From: Escherichia phage MIZ6
Reading direction: 5' to 3' (one strand)
Sequence record: OR192075.1
Length of the DNA: 64,000 bases
Positions 4,347 through 52,872 of the stretch are shown here, in pieces. Position 1 is the first letter of the stretch; each line of letters starts with the position of its first letter. A program made the translations under genes and the position numbers. The notes under the pieces were generated by a model. It made no database searches. It was not told the DNA's origin and saw nothing but the letters and a program-made list of their open reading frames with translations.

Positions 4347-4388
4347 TCAATTTTTAGAGAGTATAACGGGGATTTCTCCCCGCGTCAA

Positions 4389-11807: not shown

Positions 11808-11836
11808 AGTATAGGGGATCTCGCGATCCCCGTCAA
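11808..11836 (-). promoter_or_regulatory. sigma70-like early promoter
   Basis: -35 TTGACG 11831-11836, 17-bp spacer containing palindrome GGGGATC-GCGA-GATCCCC, -10 TATACT 11808-11813. Confidence 0.55.
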
Positions 11837-12959: not shown

Positions 12960-12988
12960 ATTATACATTAGCTAATCATGTTGTCAAC
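12960..12988 (-). promoter_or_regulatory. sigma70-like early promoter (cassette with terminator 13005-13024)
   Basis: -35 TTGACA 12983-12988, 17-bp spacer, -10 TATAAT 12960-12965. Confidence 0.6.
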
Positions 12989-13004
12989 ACCCCAAAACGA
13001 AAAA

Positions 13005-13024
13005 GCCGACCCTTTCGGATCGGC
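13005..13024 (-). terminator. rho-independent terminator hairpin after nrdD
   Basis: GCCGA-CCCTTTCGGA-TCGGC flanked by A/T runs. Confidence 0.55.
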
Positions 13025-13030
13025 TGAAAA

Positions 13031-15433: not shown

Positions 15434-15463
15434 AATATAATCCTCTCGTTGTTAAGTGGGAGT

Positions 15464-15491
15464 ATTATAGCATACTCCCTTCGCATGTCAA
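15464..15491 (-). promoter_or_regulatory. sigma70-like early promoter with inverted repeat around -10
   Basis: -35 TTGACA 15486-15491; -10 TATAAT 15464-15469 bracketed by GGGAGTAT (15458-15465) / ATACTCCC (15472-15479). Confidence 0.6.
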
Positions 15492-16666: not shown

Positions 16667-16694
16667 AATATAATCCTCTAGTTGTTTAAATGGG

Positions 16695-16723
16695 AGTATC
16701 TTACTACTCCCGTTTCATCATGT
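16695..16723 (-). promoter_or_regulatory. sigma70-like early promoter with inverted repeat around -10
   Basis: -35 TTGACA 16718-16723, 17-bp spacer, -10 TAAGAT; arms GGGAGTA 16689-16695 / TACTCCC 16702-16708. Confidence 0.6.
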
Positions 16724-17577: not shown

Positions 17578-17608
17578 TGTTGATTCTCCTTCTTGATTAG
17601 ATGGGAGT

Positions 17609-17637
17609 ATTTTACTACTCCCATTTCTTATTGTCAA
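17609..17637 (-). promoter_or_regulatory. sigma70-like early promoter with inverted repeat around -10
   Basis: -35 TTGACA 17632-17637, 17-bp spacer, -10 TAAAAT; arms GGGAGTA 17603-17609 / TACTCCC 17616-17622. Confidence 0.6.
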
Positions 17638-20799: not shown

Positions 20800-20833
20800 A
20801 ATATAATCCTCACATCGTTCATTTGATGCGGTC

Positions 20834-20862
20834 ATTATATGATAACCGCATTTTCATGTCAA
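20834..20862 (-). promoter_or_regulatory. sigma70-like early promoter with inverted repeat around -10
   Basis: -35 TTGACA 20857-20862, 17-bp spacer, -10 TATAAT 20834-20839; arms ATGCGGT 20826-20832 / ACCGCAT 20845-20851. Confidence 0.6.
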
Positions 20863-21508: not shown

Positions 21509-21537
21509 AGTATAGGGGATCACCGATCCCCTGTCAA
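21509..21537 (-). promoter_or_regulatory. sigma70-like early promoter
   Basis: -35 TTGACA 21532-21537; spacer palindrome GGGGATC-ACC-GATCCCC 21515-21531; -10 TATACT 21509-21514. Confidence 0.55.
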
Positions 21538-23613: not shown

Positions 23614-23630
23614 CACCCAAAAACAAAAAA

Positions 23631-23650
23631 GGCTACCCCGAAGGATAGCC
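23631..23650 (-). terminator. terminator hairpin
   Basis: GGCTACC-CCGAAGG-ATAGCC followed by T-run on minus strand. Confidence 0.5.
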
Positions 23651-23657
23651 CATAAAA

Positions 23658-26031: not shown

Positions 26032-26046
26032 CACCTAAAAACGAAA

Positions 26047-26068
26047 AAGCCACCCTTTCGGATGGCTT
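26047..26068. terminator. terminator hairpin flanked by A-run and T-run (either strand)
   Basis: AAAAAGCCACCCTTTCGGATGGCTTTTT. Confidence 0.55.
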
Positions 26069-26301
26069 TTTGATTATATTTTATTCACGTCCATTTGTAT
26101 AGTAGTGTTTGAATCGACCTTTGCTAAACTAGTTAAACATAGTAACCAATTCACCATCCCTTTCCAATGATAACACTTCCTCGTCTTAGACGGGTCTTCT
26201 GATTCGGCAGTAATTGAACACGCGAAAGTATGAGGAAGCCAAATAGTTGTGTTGATGCTAGTATTCTTTTACTTCTGGTATGTATCCCAATGTGACTAAC
26301 A

Positions 26302-35246: not shown

Positions 35247-35452
35247 GTCACCGTTTTGTAAAGAAACACAATAAAATCCAAGACAAGAAAGACAGTGTAA
35301 ATGATCATCGTCAAGACAGTAAACACTGTCAGATTTTCATCGTTAGTTAATTCATAGTCGCCCATCCATACAATAACAAGATATAGCATTGAAAGAATGG
35401 AAGCACCTACGAAGTTAAAAAACATATTCTTGAGCGTCATATTAACAACCAT
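35243..35452 (-). CDS. small membrane protein
   Basis: 69 aa hydrophobic. Confidence 0.4.
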   Translation of the reverse strand: MVVNMTLKNMFFNFVGASILSMLYLVIVWMGDYELTNDENLTVFTVLTMIIYTVFLVLDFIVFLYKTVT

Positions 35453-35624
35453 CGCGGCTTAAGTCAACAGCAATTGCATACAGCATAATGAATATGCTAG
35501 CAGATCCAAGAATCAATGCACCGTCACATTTTGAAACTCGCTCATCAAAATGCAACAGTATCCATCCGAGGATGTTAAAGGCGCACACCGCGCCTATATT
35601 ATCTAACCAATTAATCTTTTTCAT
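35442..35624 (-). CDS. small membrane protein
   Basis: 60 aa hydrophobic. Confidence 0.4.
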   Translation of the reverse strand: MKKINWLDNIGAVCAFNILGWILLHFDERVSKCDGALILGSASIFIMLYAIAVDLSRDGC

Positions 35625-35632
35625 AATATACC

Positions 35633-35959
35633 TTAAAAAGAAACAGTTTTCAAGAAATCCAGATTTTCAGTACCGAAAACAGAAAAGTAGTGTTTTCCTT
35701 TTTCGGTTTTAGAGAAAGCGATTGTCTTCTCTACATGGTGACGGAAGCCAGACAGACGATCGCCCAGGTCAAGGCGGCAAGCGTAAGTAGTGCCGTTTTC
35801 GAAAGTAACCTCGATTTGAGTTTTGTCATATTCGCTTTCATAGGCTTTTGCTGCCGCTTCCAGTGCTTTACGCTCGAAGTCTTCGAAGTGGAATACTTCG
35901 TTTGCGTTAGCGAATACAGAAGATTCAGAGAAGATAACTTTAACAGATACTGGTTTCAT
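35633..35959 (-). CDS. hypothetical protein
   Basis: 108 aa; promoter cassette and AAGGAG RBS upstream. Confidence 0.55.
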   Translation of the reverse strand: MKPVSVKVIFSESSVFANANEVFHFEDFERKALEAAAKAYESEYDKTQIEVTFENGTTYACRLDLGDRLSGFRHHVEKTIAFSKTEKGKHYFSVFGTENLDFLKTVSF

Positions 35960-35992
35960 TTTGATACTCCTTAGTAGTTCGTGTTTCGTTTC

Positions 35993-36021
35993 GATGGGTG
36001 TATTATGCTATACACCCTCTC
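35993..36021 (-). promoter_or_regulatory. sigma70-like early promoter with inverted repeat around -10
   Basis: -35 TTGACA 36016-36021, 17-bp spacer, -10 CATAAT 35993-35998; arms GGGTGTAT 35987-35994 / ATACACCC 36001-36008. Confidence 0.6.
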
Positions 36022-36038
36022 GTGTGTCAACAACTTTT

Positions 36039-36227
36039 TTAGTCTTTTTTCATAATTTCTAGAGCAGTTTCTACCGCACCTTTCCACCCCTCCCACATAA
36101 TGGACATAGTAATGAAGTTAAAGCACCCGCAGGAATCAGCCTTTTTAGAAATAAACCATTCTGCAAACGCTTCGCTCATACCATGCTCTTTAGCGGATTC
36201 GCGTAATTGTTCAATTTGGTCTTCCAT
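36039..36227 (-). CDS. hypothetical protein
   Basis: 62-aa ORF. Confidence 0.4.
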   Translation of the reverse strand: MEDQIEQLRESAKEHGMSEAFAEWFISKKADSCGCFNFITMSIMWEGWKGAVETALEIMKKD

Positions 36228-36236
36228 AGTATCACC

Positions 36237-36437
36237 TCAACACTTAACGTTATTCAAACGATTTTGAAAGTACATATAGCAAGCATAATTTTGTTTTGGC
36301 TGTACCGTATCAGATAAGCACGCTTTTACAGCCTCGCGGTCCGATGGATCTACGCCCTCAGCGTTAAGCAATGCTAAGATCTGATAATAGCGTACTCTCA
36401 GTTGCGTTAATGGTTTCTCTCCCATAAAACCCTCCAA
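36237..36437 (-). CDS. hypothetical protein
   Basis: 66-aa ORF. Confidence 0.4.
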   Translation of the reverse strand: MEGFMGEKPLTQLRVRYYQILALLNAEGVDPSDREAVKACLSDTVQPKQNYACYMYFQNRLNNVKC

Positions 36438-36665
36438 TTAAAGTTGTTCTGCAATGTATGCGGTGCATTTACGGAGTTTAGCCATCGCACCACCTTTCAT
36501 GTCGCTTGCACCTACAAGGTTCATGATCTCTAAGCGGTCAGTCGGATTCAGTCTAGTAGCCCAGATCTGGTTAGCCAGTTCCATTTTACCCATCTGCGGT
36601 TCCATCTCAAACAGTTCGCGCTCAAAGTCGATAATTTCTTTTGCTGCGTCTTTAAAGTTAATCAT
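36438..36665 (-). CDS. hypothetical protein
   Basis: 75 aa; promoter cassette upstream. Confidence 0.45.
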   Translation of the reverse strand: MINFKDAAKEIIDFERELFEMEPQMGKMELANQIWATRLNPTDRLEIMNLVGASDMKGGAMAKLRKCTAYIAEQL

Positions 36666-36694
36666 TTTGATTCTCCCGTTTCGTTGATGGTTGT

Positions 36695-36723
36695 ATTGTA
36701 GGGGAGTTATCCTCCCCTGTCAA
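36695..36723 (-). promoter_or_regulatory. sigma70-like early promoter
   Basis: -35 TTGACA 36718-36723; spacer palindrome AGGGGAG-TTATC-CTCCCCT 36700-36718; -10 TACAAT 36695-36700. Confidence 0.55.
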
Positions 36724-36731
36724 CACTTTTA

Positions 36732-36917
36732 TCAGAAATATGCAATATAGTTTGCCAGTCCTACAGAGTCATCATTCGGCATTGCTTTTACTGCCAGTTC
36801 AAACCCTGCTTCAACTTTCTGTTTAGCGGATTCTTCGTTATAACCCCAGATTACCAGAATAGCTACTACGTTTTCTTTGCTTACTGCTTTCAGTGCTTTA
36901 GTGATGCGACGTGCCAT
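36732..36917 (-). CDS. hypothetical protein
   Basis: 61 aa; promoter cassette and GGAGAATCAAATTATG leader. Confidence 0.45.
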   Translation of the reverse strand: MARRITKALKAVSKENVVAILVIWGYNEESAKQKVEAGFELAVKAMPNDDSVGLANYIAYF

Positions 36918-36963
36918 AATTTGATTCTCCGTTTAAGAAAGTGTGTTTCGTTTCGATGGGTGT

Positions 36964-36992
36964 ATTATGCTATAGGCCGGATCTGGTGTCAA
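36964..36992 (-). promoter_or_regulatory. sigma70-like early promoter (cassette with terminator 37026-37043)
   Basis: -35 TTGACA 36987-36992, 17-bp spacer, -10 CATAAT 36964-36969; 29 nt identical to the 35975-36003 copy. Confidence 0.55.
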
Positions 36993-37025
36993 CAACTTTT
37001 TTAAAAAATTTTAGGCAATAAAAAA

Positions 37026-37043
37026 GCCACTCCGAAGAGTGGC
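37026..37043 (-). terminator. terminator hairpin with UUCG tetraloop
   Basis: minus strand GCCACTC-TTCG-GAGTGGC followed by T6. Confidence 0.6.
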
Positions 37044-37046
37044 TTA

Positions 37047-37194
37047 TAGGGAAGGTAGCGAATCTTCCTTGTCTCCAACCTGCTAGCGGCCTAGCAAGGG
37101 AATGCTTTAGCGTACCGGATCGCCCACATACGCTGTAATAAATGCGGCTAGGTGACGTCCAAATCATTCTAACCGCGCTGTCTTTAGTTCACTA
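37047..37194 (-). ncRNA. candidate structured RNA / structured 3' UTR upstream of terminator
   Basis: ~150 nt between stop at 37195 and terminator hairpin 37026-37043; three predicted local hairpins; no ORF with RBS. Confidence 0.25.
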
Positions 37195-37413
37195 TTATTT
37201 ATATCGCTTTCTCTCGCGACGTTTTTGATCTTCTTCCTTGATAGAGTTAAATGCATCAAAAAGACACATGACACTGATAATGAACATAACCGTATTTTCT
37301 ACGATATCCCACGGCTTCGCATCAGTACAGATCCCCCAAACGGTAAGAAATGCAAATAAGGCAGAAGAGATCACAAGCATGATACTTGCTAAGATATAAA
37401 AAGTCATTTTCAT
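37195..37413 (-). CDS. small membrane protein
   Basis: 72 aa, two TM segments, basic tail. Confidence 0.45.
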   Translation of the reverse strand: MKMTFYILASIMLVISSALFAFLTVWGICTDAKPWDIVENTVMFIISVMCLFDAFNSIKEEDQKRRERKRYK

Positions 37414-37604
37414 GGTTTTACCTCAATTCTTCGATATTCATCACACATCCACGCAGTAAGCAAGAATCCCAACACATAAGCAACAAAATACGTTAATGCT
37501 TCTTCTGGTTCGGTGCTATGCGCCATCATCAGACCAGCGAGAAAGGTCTTAACAATTACATTTAAAATAATTAGCCACGCAAATAATTTCATCGTTTGCC
37601 CCAT
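37410..37604 (-). CDS. small membrane protein
   Basis: 64 aa. Confidence 0.4.
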   Translation of the reverse strand: MGQTMKLFAWLIILNVIVKTFLAGLMMAHSTEPEEALTYFVAYVLGFLLTAWMCDEYRRIEVKP

Positions 37605-37828
37605 TTCGGTCGAGTCTTTTCAAACTTATACATTCCGTAACAATCTCGAATCATCCACGTAACAAGAGCACCAGTCAACACAGACAATACACAGAAGAAG
37701 TAAAACGGTCCGGTTGCATTATCAACATGAGCAAGCCAGGTAAAGAAAACACATGCTAAGAATGTAAAGAACATCATAAAGCACAAGAAAGCGAAATATT
37801 TTATACTACTCATAGCGCCACCATACAA
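37589..37828 (-). CDS. small membrane protein
   Basis: 79 aa. Confidence 0.4.
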   Translation of the reverse strand: MYGGAMSSIKYFAFLCFMMFFTFLACVFFTWLAHVDNATGPFYFFCVLSVLTGALVTWMIRDCYGMYKFEKTRPKWGKR

Positions 37829-37916
37829 CAGATCATAAGAAAACCCAACGCAATAAGAATTGCATCAAATTTAGTGAACTCAGGCCCACCTATCAACATC
37901 ATTCGTTCTATTTCGT

Positions 37917-38159
37917 TCATAGCGTACAAAGCCATTTAAAAGCACCACATAAAGCGAGCAGAATACTAGGTATAAACGAGACCAAAACAAGACTACAAAA
38001 ATCATCTAAGGTAACACCGGAATAGCTACCTACTGTAACAACACCGATCATCAGACACAGAAAGAAAACAAATGCAATCATAAACAAAGTATTGCTAAAC
38101 AGTTTAGTGATCATTAGACACCCCACGACGATCAATTTCAAAAACTTTTTTATCATCAA
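37917..38159 (-). CDS. small membrane protein
   Basis: 80 aa. Confidence 0.4.
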   Translation of the reverse strand: MMIKKFLKLIVVGCLMITKLFSNTLFMIAFVFFLCLMIGVVTVGSYSGVTLDDFCSLVLVSFIPSILLALCGAFKWLCTL

Positions 38160-38316: not shown

Positions 38317-38520
38317 TTATTTGCTAATCGCTAAACCCAATCCGAAGAGAGCACCCGATGCTACAGTATACCCGAAAGTTTCAAAGGCAGTAAAGATATC
38401 TAAGCCACCAGCTAACAGAGTTGCGGTAAACAGAGTACCAGCTACGAACATAAAAGTTTTACCGATAAATTTCATTTTGATTCTCCTTTCGTTTGTTTGT
38501 GGGGGTATCTTACTACCCAC
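38317..38520 (-). CDS. small membrane protein
   Basis: 67 aa; promoter cassette upstream. Confidence 0.45.
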   Translation of the reverse strand: MGSKIPPQTNERRIKMKFIGKTFMFVAGTLFTATLLAGGLDIFTAFETFGYTVASGALFGLGLAISK

Positions 38521-38536
38521 CGTTTCATGTTGTCAA
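38507..38536 (-). promoter_or_regulatory. sigma70-like early promoter with imperfect inverted repeat around -10
   Basis: -35 TTGACA 38531-38536, 18-bp spacer, -10 TAAGAT; arms GTGGGGGTA / TACCCAC. Confidence 0.5.
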
Positions 38537-38958: not shown

Positions 38959-38987
38959 ATTATGCTATAGTCGTTTATGGTTGTCAA
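38959..38987 (-). promoter_or_regulatory. sigma70-like early promoter (cassette with terminator 39006-39024)
   Basis: -35 TTGACA 38982-38987, 17-bp spacer, -10 CATAAT 38959-38964. Confidence 0.55.
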
Positions 38988-39005
38988 CACATAAAAACAA
39001 AAAAA

Positions 39006-39024
39006 CCCCGAAAATTTTTCGGGG
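39006..39024. terminator. terminator hairpin after 57B-like gene
   Basis: AAAAAAACCCCGAAAATTTTTCGGGGTAT. Confidence 0.55.
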
Positions 39025-39031
39025 TATAGAA

Positions 39032-42362: not shown

Positions 42363-42836
42363 CTATTTGTTAAGCCCTTTAAAGCCAAACACTTTCTTTA
42401 ATGCATGTTCGGTTATGATCTTAAACTCCATGTTATGCTTTTGGCATAATTTCACGGCAGCTAACCATTTTTCAGTATTTTTTGTGTATGTCCATACTTC
42501 ATGCATATATCGTTGCTTTGTCTTCGCGGTCATTCTTTTTGGCTTTTCCGGTGGCCTTGTCTCTTTAGCTGGTTTAACTTCCCATAAATGCTCCTTGCCA
42601 TCATCAAACTTAACGTAAAAATCCATAAAGTATCTGTGTCTTTTTCCGTCGGTTGATGACTCATAAGGAATTACTACGGTCTCAGATCCCCATTTTGCAA
42701 CTCTAGGATTGCGGTCTAAAAATTTCATTATATGTAATTCCCAACTTGACCTGTAGACGATTTTTTTCAGGTCGCCTTTATACTTCTCAGGATTTTCAGG
42801 TCTATATTTACCCTTATATGTGTTGCAATTACCCAT
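42363..42836 (-). CDS. 4: gp4 head completion protein
   Basis: 157 aa; ..NPEKYKGDLKKIVYRSSWELHIMKFLDRNPRVAKWGSETVVIPY.. resembles T4 gp4. Confidence 0.85.
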   Translation of the reverse strand: MGNCNTYKGKYRPENPEKYKGDLKKIVYRSSWELHIMKFLDRNPRVAKWGSETVVIPYESSTDGKRHRYFMDFYVKFDDGKEHLWEVKPAKETRPPEKPKRMTAKTKQRYMHEVWTYTKNTEKWLAAVKLCQKHNMEFKIITEHALKKVFGFKGLNK

Positions 42837-43531
42837 TATACCACCTTCTTCTTGCAGTTGTCACCATGCCATCTAACATAATTTCCCTGATTGGCTGTTT
42901 TTCCACAATGAGGACAGGTGAAATACGGACGGGACTTTGACAATTCACTATATTTTTGTTTCATTTCTGGTGTGTTATGAATACGTTTCCATTTCTCTAC
43001 GTTTTCTTGTGACAACTTTCTACCCTTACCCGCTTTAGAGATGTTGTCTCTCCATTCTTGTGTAATTTCTCTTGACGCAATATTTCTTTTATGTTCTTCT
43101 GTAAACACTCTACCTTTTAATGAAGCAGATAATTTCTGTCGATGTTCCTCAGACAATTTAATTCCTTTTCTCTTTCCTTTAGTTGCTTCTGATATTCTGC
43201 GTCTAGTCTCTTCGGATCTTTTTCTTCCTGTATGAAATTTTCTTGAAGTCTCGACCGCAAGTTTTCTTACCCACTCAAATTGTTTATTGTTATAGTTGGT
43301 AGACCCCATCAATATTTTCGCCGCATGTACAACTCCGTGATGTGTTGGATGCATTTTTGCTAAAAGTTGATGAGCAACAAAATGTTCAGACCCCGTTAAC
43401 TCCACTATATTTTCTGGACTATCATCGCCTCCCATACAACGAGGAATAATATGATGTTTTTCTTTATATCCTTCAAGCGTTCTATGCTTTGCGCGTTCAA
43501 TTAATCGATCATAATGTTTTTGATAGTCCAT
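42836..43531 (-). CDS. free-standing HNH homing endonuclease with NUMOD-type DNA-binding repeats
   Basis: 231 aa; HHIIPRCMGGDDSPENIVELTGSEHFVAHQ HNH motif; repeated SEExRRxISxxxKGK units; C-terminal CPHCG zinc ribbon; inserted between gp4 and gp53. Confidence 0.8.
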   Translation of the reverse strand: MDYQKHYDRLIERAKHRTLEGYKEKHHIIPRCMGGDDSPENIVELTGSEHFVAHQLLAKMHPTHHGVVHAAKILMGSTNYNNKQFEWVRKLAVETSRKFHTGRKRSEETRRRISEATKGKRKGIKLSEEHRQKLSASLKGRVFTEEHKRNIASREITQEWRDNISKAGKGRKLSQENVEKWKRIHNTPEMKQKYSELSKSRPYFTCPHCGKTANQGNYVRWHGDNCKKKVV

Positions 43532-52792: not shown

Positions 52793-52807
52793 GTGTATGA
52801 TTTAAAA

Positions 52808-52827
52808 GCCAATTCGAGAGAGTTGGC
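52808..52827 (+). terminator. terminator hairpin after gp8
   Basis: GCCAATTC-GAGA-GAGTTGGC followed by TTTTT. Confidence 0.55.
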
Positions 52828-52844
52828 TTTTTCTATTTTGGGTG

Positions 52845-52872
52845 TTGACAATCTTGTCTGATAAGGTATAAT
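52845..52872 (+). promoter_or_regulatory. sigma70-like early-type promoter on plus strand, inside the late module
   Basis: -35 TTGACA 52845-52850, 16-bp spacer, -10 TATAAT 52867-52872; preceded by terminator 52808-52827; drives the three-gene MTase cassette. Confidence 0.6.

Follow-up and report, generated by a model that had tools for sequence, protein, structure and literature searches.

The closest described relatives of the repeats examined here are the PeSL (promoter-early stem-loop) cassettes of phages Phi1 and RB49, of which about 52 repeated copies occur per genome (Arbiol, Comeau, Kutateladze, Adamia and Krisch 2010, Genome Biol Evol 2:140; PMC2839356). In that study promoter activity was demonstrated by lacZ fusions, with PeSL206/205 reaching ~13,000 Miller units, and a PeSL with a hairpin in its spacer proved so strong a promoter that most clones gained down-mutations. 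The stem-loop of PeSL211/210 reduced expression of downstream lacZ much as rrnB T1 did, the repeats blocked the sequencing polymerase on a single-stranded template, and the cassettes were proposed to mediate module shuffling and the formation of mini-circles, with PeSL-flanked indels and mini-circles both being reported (PMC2839356). The idea was later extended to the phage pairs T4/PST and KVP40/nt-1 (Comeau, Arbiol and Krisch 2014; PMC4122927). The PeSL and PmSL elements of those pairs are likewise composite cassettes of promoter and stem-loop located in the hyperplastic regions of T4-like phages; however, their promoter consensus (TTTACW / TTGYVH) and their stems (AGNA...TCNT, A3-4G3...C3T3-4) differ, and they represent analogues belonging to a sequence family separate from the Krischvirus cassettes.

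The window considered in this work is a stretch of 64,000 nucleotides from Escherichia phage MIZ6 (OR192075.1), in which an earlier note, made from the sequence alone, had drawn attention to inverted repeats bracketing the -10 hexamer of many early promoters. In BLAST comparisons bases 35000-38000 match Escherichia phage MIZ3 (OR167179) at 100% identity, and the BLAST offset indicates that the window corresponds to the final 64 kb of that record. GEC-3S, RB49, Phi1 and about 50 further Krischvirus genomes show 96.5-98.5% identity to the same bases, and the identity of RB49 and Phi1 to the window is 96.5-97.2%. A T5-like phage, which the GC content of 39% and the strong sigma70 promoters might suggest, is rejected by these comparisons. 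GC skew, the list of open reading frames and annotated relatives together define bases 1 to ~44000 as an array of small early genes on the minus strand, which is a 'hyperplastic region' of a T4-like phage. On the minus strand, each of the sites noted earlier is a sigma70 promoter of the form TTGACA-N16-18-TAnnnT, followed by a conserved leader, a Shine-Dalgarno sequence and an ATG. The window holds 20 such intergenic promoters, 17 of which have TTGACA as their -35 hexamer; spacers are 16-18 nt long, and the -10 hexamers match TATAAT at 4-6 of the six positions. The 20 nt upstream of the -35 are 60-90% A+T, with the single exception of cassette 12987 (50%), the distance from the preceding stop codon to the ATG is 54-111 nt in most cassettes, and the genes downstream are mostly small hypothetical ORFs.

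The inverted repeats are almost certainly the stem-loops of PeSL cassettes. Because every testable defining feature at the sequence level is present and the loci are orthologous, the repeats around the -10 are a rediscovery of the element described in 2010 in the RB49/Phi1 group and are thus already known. The orthologous positions of Phi1 carry the same promoters and hairpins, and the same cassettes are present at the Phi1, JSE and GEC-3S loci and at four further Krischvirus loci. Shared with the published Phi1/RB49 elements are the genus, the loci, the TTGACA-N17-TATAAT promoter, the AT-rich upstream tract, the stem-loop with its G-run and C-run, the intergenic placement before small ORFs in hyperplastic regions and the positional subclasses (spacer, overlap with the -10, upstream of the -35); nothing essential differs beyond this being another isolate. 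One hairpin sequence is identical: the region upstream of Phi1 ORF210, the PeSL211/210 intergenic region from which we infer the sequence of the stem-loop tested in the published assay, contains the spacer hairpin GGGGATCGGTGATCCCC, which is also that of window positions 21515-21531. The region upstream of Phi1 ORF205 contains GGGGATCACCGATCCCC. A search of the whole window with the Rfam covariance models at the gathering threshold returned no match. Since the 2010 study had already named the element and characterised part of it, within the same phage group, its presence here carries no weight as a discovery. What goes beyond the 2010 and 2014 texts are the shuffle statistics, the conservation among orthologs, the mutual exclusion with upstream terminators, the dependence on distance from the stop codon and the delineation of a -10 class without U-tract; the residual value of the analysis accordingly lies in quantitative points, namely the exclusion between hairpin and terminator and the finding that arms and promoter hexamers are conserved to about the same degree.

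Among the 20 promoters the stem-loop overlaps the -10 in seven, lies within the spacer in four, stands upstream of the -35 as a terminator in six and encloses the region from -35 to +15 in one; in the remaining two it is weak or absent. Cassettes are named below by the first coordinate of their promoter, and features are on the minus strand unless stated otherwise. In class A, with seven members, the arms flank or overlap the -10; the first 4-5 bases of the hexamer fall within the 6-nt loop, and the discriminator is taken up by the C-rich 3' arm. The hairpin GGGTGTAT-agcata-ATACACCC at 35996..36017 overlaps the -10 CATAAT of promoter 36030-36002 and has an MFE of -14.6 (z -5.95); its arms are invariant in 8 orthologs, and 7 adjoining spacer columns are variable. 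The arms of GGGGGTA-gtaata-TACCCCC at 30639..30658 (promoter 30673-30645) are invariant in 7 orthologs, with 8 variable columns in the spacer. The 10-bp stem of ATGCGGTTAT-catata-ATGACCGCAT at 20826..20851 (promoter 20862-20834), which includes one U.G pair, is perfect in G2248, has its wobble shifted by one pair in SSG23 and is 9 bp long in Phi1, and in ATGGGAGTA-gtaaaa-TACTCCCAT at 17601..17624 (promoter 17637-17609) an A>G change in Phi1 produces a U.G pair. GGGAGTA-gtaaga-TACTCCC at 16692..16711 belongs to promoter 16726-16698, and GGGAGTAT-gctata-ATACTCCC at 15458..15479 to promoter 15491-15464, which combines a spacer of 16 nt with a TGn extended -10. The seventh hairpin, GGtGGGTA...TACCCCC at 38501..38521 (promoter 38536), is damaged by a 1-nt insertion of T and has a spacer of 18 nt; all seven comparator loci lack this T and have the stem GGGGGTA/TACCCCC with a spacer of 17 nt. 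The extra base reflects either recent damage or an error in the MIZ3 sequencing.

The four class B hairpins fill the spacer and abut the -10. They comprise AGGGGAG-gataa-CTCCCCT at 36700..36718 (promoter 36723-36695, -10 TACAAT), AGGGGATC-ggt-GATCCCCT at 21514..21532 (promoter 21537-21509), and two with GNRA loops, GGGGATC-gcga-GATCCCC at 11814..11831 (promoter 11836-11808) and CGGGGA-gaaa-TCCCCG at 4367..4382 (promoter 4388-4360), the last of which the earlier note had not listed. In the MIZ3 genome (locus L008, 38272 and 37878; also Phi1 locus L010, ~10070) AGGGGATCggtGATCCCCT and AGGGGATCaccGATCCCCT, both of class B, are exact reverse complements of one another, the loop being flipped between paralogous cassettes (ggt and acc). 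In the 10 nt that follow the 3' arm in classes A and B (for example 35986-35995), the leader has the consensus CATCGAAACGAAAC..., common to many paralogous copies.

Class C, with six members, has no internal hairpin and instead carries a hairpin with a T-run just upstream of the -35. Loops in this class are UUCG or GNRA: UUCG at 37017..37045 (promoter 36992-36964) and 23619..23651 (promoter 23613-23586), GAAA at 26037..26071 (promoter 26031-26003) and 12994..13025 (promoter 12987-12960), and GAGA at 52804..52839 on the plus strand, upstream of promoter 52845-52872, the sole plus-strand cassette. At 38993..39025 the terminator ACCCCGAAA-aat-TTTCGGGGT with T7 lies 5 nt upstream of promoter 38987-38959. 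The GEC-3S annotation places a terminator at the counterpart of 37017..37045, and the annotators of G2248 independently marked terminators in several of the same intergenic gaps. The spacer of the class C promoter at 12960-12987 also holds a perfect 12-nt loopless palindrome, CATTAGCTAATG. The three odd or decayed promoter copies are 19762, 24789 and 29830. At 29784-29832, after regB, a promoter is enclosed from -35 to about +15 by a 13-bp long-range stem, GCTTGACTTTCTG...CAGAAAGTTAAGC; the FL04 variant of this region folds with four sense-strand G.U pairs and is far more stable in the sense than in the antisense orientation (-10.2 vs -4.6).

All of the inverted repeats listed in the earlier note are present, and nine of its eleven coordinate pairs are exact. 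The other two are displaced by 3 and 9 nt, GGGAGTA/TACTCCC lying at 16692-16711 and not 16689-16708, and GGGTGTAT/ATACACCC at 35996-36017 and not 35987-36008; besides cassette 4388, the note had missed 38536, the decayed copy 24789 and the long-range stem of 29830.

The symmetry of these sites is far from random. In 2000 shuffles that kept both hexamers fixed, perfect arms of at least 7 bp occurred in a mean of 0.107 promoters (maximum 2), against 8 of the 20 real ones, and in none of 20 intragenic sequences that fit the same regular expression. The promoters fold with a mean MFE of -8.3 kcal/mol, compared with -3.1 for the shuffles and -3.9 for the intragenic sequences; for single hairpins the energies run from -12.9 to -14.9 kcal/mol and the z-scores from -3.0 to -6.0. 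Covariation was assessed on the unique class A copies of the whole MIZ3 genome together with those of the Phi1, JSE, UPWr_E1, SSG23, G2248, FL04 and GEC-3S loci. As the class A alignments were chosen for pairing, the percentage of paired positions is circular and only double changes count as evidence; such double-sided changes affect three pairs in one register and one in the other (GC/CG; UA/GC/AU; GC/UA/AU/UG; AU/GC with a GU intermediate). The earlier observation that the symmetry is held while the arm sequence changes is therefore borne out by base pairs altered on both sides.

Furthermore, a comparison of orthologous promoters, suggested in the earlier note as a check, reveals strong constraint on the arms. 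Across the orthologs of nine class A and B promoters, 6 of 129 arm columns are variable, compared with 18 of 52 columns in the non-stem spacer (Fisher p=5e-7), 6 of 18 in the non-hexamer part of the loop and 1 of 108 in the hexamers. In the leader following the hairpin no column of 78 varies, a constraint equal to that on the promoter hexamers. Substitutions within the arms of the 17637 and 20862 stems preserve pairing, mostly via sense-strand G.U; apart from these, a closing pair is changed in 21537, and 38536 has the T insertion specific to the window. Because the arms rarely vary and substitutions preserve pairing, the hairpin arms are under purifying selection for pairing. Covariation and arm conservation in orthologs thus uphold the earlier proposal of selection on pairing potential and not on one fixed recognition sequence. 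The shuffles, the covariation and the conservation among orthologs also exclude that the repeats arose by chance or reflect nothing more than common ancestry.

A further line of evidence comes from the relationship of the hairpins to upstream terminators. Over the full length of the MIZ3 genome an upstream terminator is missing from 25 of the 26 promoters that have a strong hairpin inside them, the single exception being a dubious call inside a gene, whereas 11 of the 25 promoters without a strong hairpin have a hairpin and T-run 12-31 nt upstream of the -35; internal hairpin and upstream terminator are mutually exclusive (Fisher p=0.0008). The copies at 36964-36992 and 38959-38987, which the earlier note had described as lacking an arm and from which it had concluded that the feature is not obligatory, do possess a stem-loop in the form of a canonical terminator that precedes the -35 by 17-31 nt, and that conclusion is misleading in so far as the armless copies bear a terminator instead. 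Terminator-bearing copies (36992, and 33674 and 34177 of MIZ3 locus L008) have often kept the 3' arm with a decayed 5' arm, the pattern that relaxed selection on a redundant hairpin would give.

The position of the upstream gene is also informative: between the end of its stop codon and the -35 the distance is -4 to +9 nt for classes A and B and 43 nt or more for class C. The hairpin thus occupies the first stretch beyond that stop codon that is free of other constraints. GNRA tetraloops (GAAA, GCGA, GGGA) are present at 5 of 11 class B loci of MIZ3 and their reverse complement at none, and nearly all copies share the polarity of a G-run on the 5' side and a C-run on the 3' side. RB49 early promoters favour C at -3 to -1, in a consensus that agrees with 5'-end mapping (Nolan et al. 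2006), and for this reason we place +1 at the A that follows the CCC of the 3' arm. With +1 downstream of the 3' arm, the hairpin would be absent from the cassette's own transcript and occur only in read-through RNA. The earlier note had reasoned that starts upstream of the repeats would turn them into ordinary RNA leader hairpins; this holds in spirit, since the cassette's own start lies downstream and it is from upstream promoters on the same strand that the repeats would be transcribed. Terminator exchange, placement after the stop codon, GNRA and UUCG loops and a downstream +1 together argue for a role at the RNA level, at the end of the upstream transcription unit. Folding energies over the whole region do not differ between sense and antisense strands (Wilcoxon p=0.36), a test confounded by flanking G.U extensions on the antisense strand, which in some copies also gains a T-run and resembles a terminator. 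Perfect palindromes fold alike on both strands. G.T outnumber A.C mismatches in the stems by 7 to 5 in the raw count and by 6-7 to 0 after post hoc removal of flank pairs and one bulge, a bias of internal wobbles toward G.U that is suggestive.

Taken as a whole, the repeats are probably best explained as PeSL stem-loops that end or attenuate read-through RNA, and with somewhat less assurance we favour terminator or attenuator activity in RNA as the function under selection. According to this model each small early gene of the hyperplastic region would be served by one cassette, in which the upstream stop codon is succeeded by the AT-rich tract, the near-consensus sigma70 promoter, the conserved leader, the Shine-Dalgarno sequence and the ATG, and every cassette would include one stable stem-loop, G-rich on one side and C-rich on the other. 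Where the upstream ORF ends at the -35 there would be no space for a separate terminator, and the hairpin may then be built into free sequence, either the spacer (class B) or the spacer and discriminator (class A). With the cassette's own transcript presumably starting downstream of the hairpin, as published 5'-end mapping in RB49 implies, the structure would form only in RNA reading in from upstream promoters on the same strand, in which it could bring about termination or attenuation and perhaps also protect the 3' end. Each cassette would consequently be expressed mainly from its own promoter, and the conserved ~100 bp of the cassette may double as a patch of homology for module shuffling, as has been published (PMC2839356).

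Set against intrinsic (Rho-independent) terminators in general, the cassettes share a stable GC-rich hairpin after the stop codon, and class C is textbook, with UUCG or GNRA loops and T-runs; class A and most of class B, however, lack the defining U-tract and overlap a functional promoter. No U-tract follows the class A stems, the 9 nt after the stem having 0-3 T (for example AUCGAAAC), and class B tails have 1-5 T in 9 nt, contributed by the -10 hexamer, so that the U-tract of an intrinsic terminator is found with the upstream hairpins of class C only. Under the accepted model of intrinsic termination, a hairpin without U-tract should pause RNA polymerase but not release it efficiently. On the same model, class A hairpins would be expected to work as weak terminators or attenuators, to mark pause sites or to protect 3' ends; they may thus terminate or attenuate transcription. 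The published termination test covers one class B stem-loop (PMC2839356). As the commonest class has no U-tract, the published label of 'effective terminator' rests on one spacer-type hairpin. A literature search found no Krischvirus transcriptome or 3'-end mapping data.

The alternative that fares best holds that the RNA hairpin is a 3'-end protector or processing barrier stabilising the mRNA of the upstream cistron, once read-through or cleavage has occurred, against 3' exonucleases, especially in the U-tract-less class A. The missing U-tract of the class A stems, their location directly after the upstream stop codon and their stability (-12 to -15 kcal/mol) would all suit such a role, which would also account for the exclusion with terminators, whose hairpins likewise protect 3' ends; on the other hand, the sole published test saw downstream expression fall, pointing to termination or attenuation (PMC2839356). 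We regard this reading as unlikely, and it is in any case a variant of the terminator or attenuator reading, not an alternative to it.

It is less probable still that the GGGG...CCCC repeat is a binding or cleavage site for a phage recombination protein, of the EndoVII type or other, through which cassettes are excised or inserted and mini-circles arise. The authors of the PeSL study speculated along these lines and published both PeSL-flanked indels and mini-circles (PMC2839356), the G-run to C-run polarity is nearly universal among copies, and between two class B copies the loop is exactly inverted (ggt vs acc). However, the polarity may stem from common descent, the arms covary such that no single motif is kept, and across the window indel breakpoints relative to six relatives are not enriched at promoters: their median distance is 2359 nt compared with 711 nt for random points, and 2% fall within 80 nt of a promoter compared with 8%, in a small sample of about 10 distinct events, several of which are homing endonuclease insertions. 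The role as recombination hotspots that the earlier note entertained therefore fits the published role of the whole cassette but finds no such backing for the hairpin specifically. It appears similarly doubtful that the U-tract-less class A hairpins are, at the DNA level, structure-specific targets of the phage recombination machinery or supercoil-sensitive promoter switches and not terminators; were this true, PeSL shuffling and mini-circle formation would be directed by the hairpins and would not reflect simple homologous recombination.

We consider it very improbable that the repeats extrude from supercoiled or melted DNA, as a cruciform or as a hairpin in one strand, and thereby block or modulate the promoter, as the earlier note had envisaged, even though they lie within promoters and include perfect palindromes that can fold on either strand. 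Arms of 6-10 bp with loops of 3-6 nt are short for cruciform extrusion in vivo. DNA structure predicts neither the swap for an RNA terminator upstream of the -35 nor the dependence on distance from the upstream stop codon, which the hairpins directly follow, and the several GNRA tetraloops confined to the sense strand favour RNA; in addition, the open complex would melt the 3' arm only, so that no hairpin is expected there. The blocking of the sequencing polymerase on single-stranded template counts in favour of this reading, but a PeSL promoter with a spacer hairpin was very strong, at ~13,000 Miller units in the published test, and hence not occluded (PMC2839356).

That the hairpins terminate antisense (late, opposite-strand) transcription entering the early region is scarcely credible. 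In its favour, the plus strand of 30636-30661 scores as a terminator with a T-run, the 9 nt of spacer 5' of the class A arms include 4-6 A, and the antisense folds are extended by G.U pairs. Against it, no part of the cassette varies more among orthologs than this A-rich tract (for example CAACAAAAC to CACATGATC in JSE), the class C partners are unambiguously sense-strand terminators, and class B stems are preceded by the -35 hexamer and no A-tract. The antisense reading of the class A hairpin at 30636-30661 (plus strand) continues into GTTTTGTTG, a tract that is not conserved in JSE and UPWr_E1.

Several minor observations concern the indels themselves. Two of the ~10 events have breakpoints at most ~90 nt from a listed promoter (23580 and 26119). 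The latter belongs to an indel hot spot at 26119-26191, ~50 nt upstream of the terminator at 26037-26071, where ~150 nt are present in Phi1, adjoined by the small ORF ORF084.1, and ~2 kb with a 2.1-kb ORF in SSG23 and G2248. An insertion at 31843-31864 lies just downstream of the terminator at 31883-31907, which is class C-like and is accompanied by a degenerate promoter, TTGGCT-17-TATGAT; homing/HNH endonuclease genes are inserted at 31843-31907 and at 33032-33056 in JSE, FL04 and G2248. Finally, a segment of ~700 nt (42824-43528) is missing from all six comparator Krischvirus loci, and the minus-strand ORF at 42836-43531, whose 231-aa product contains an HNH motif and NUMOD-like repeats, probably encodes a free-standing homing endonuclease that has inserted next to the head-completion gene.
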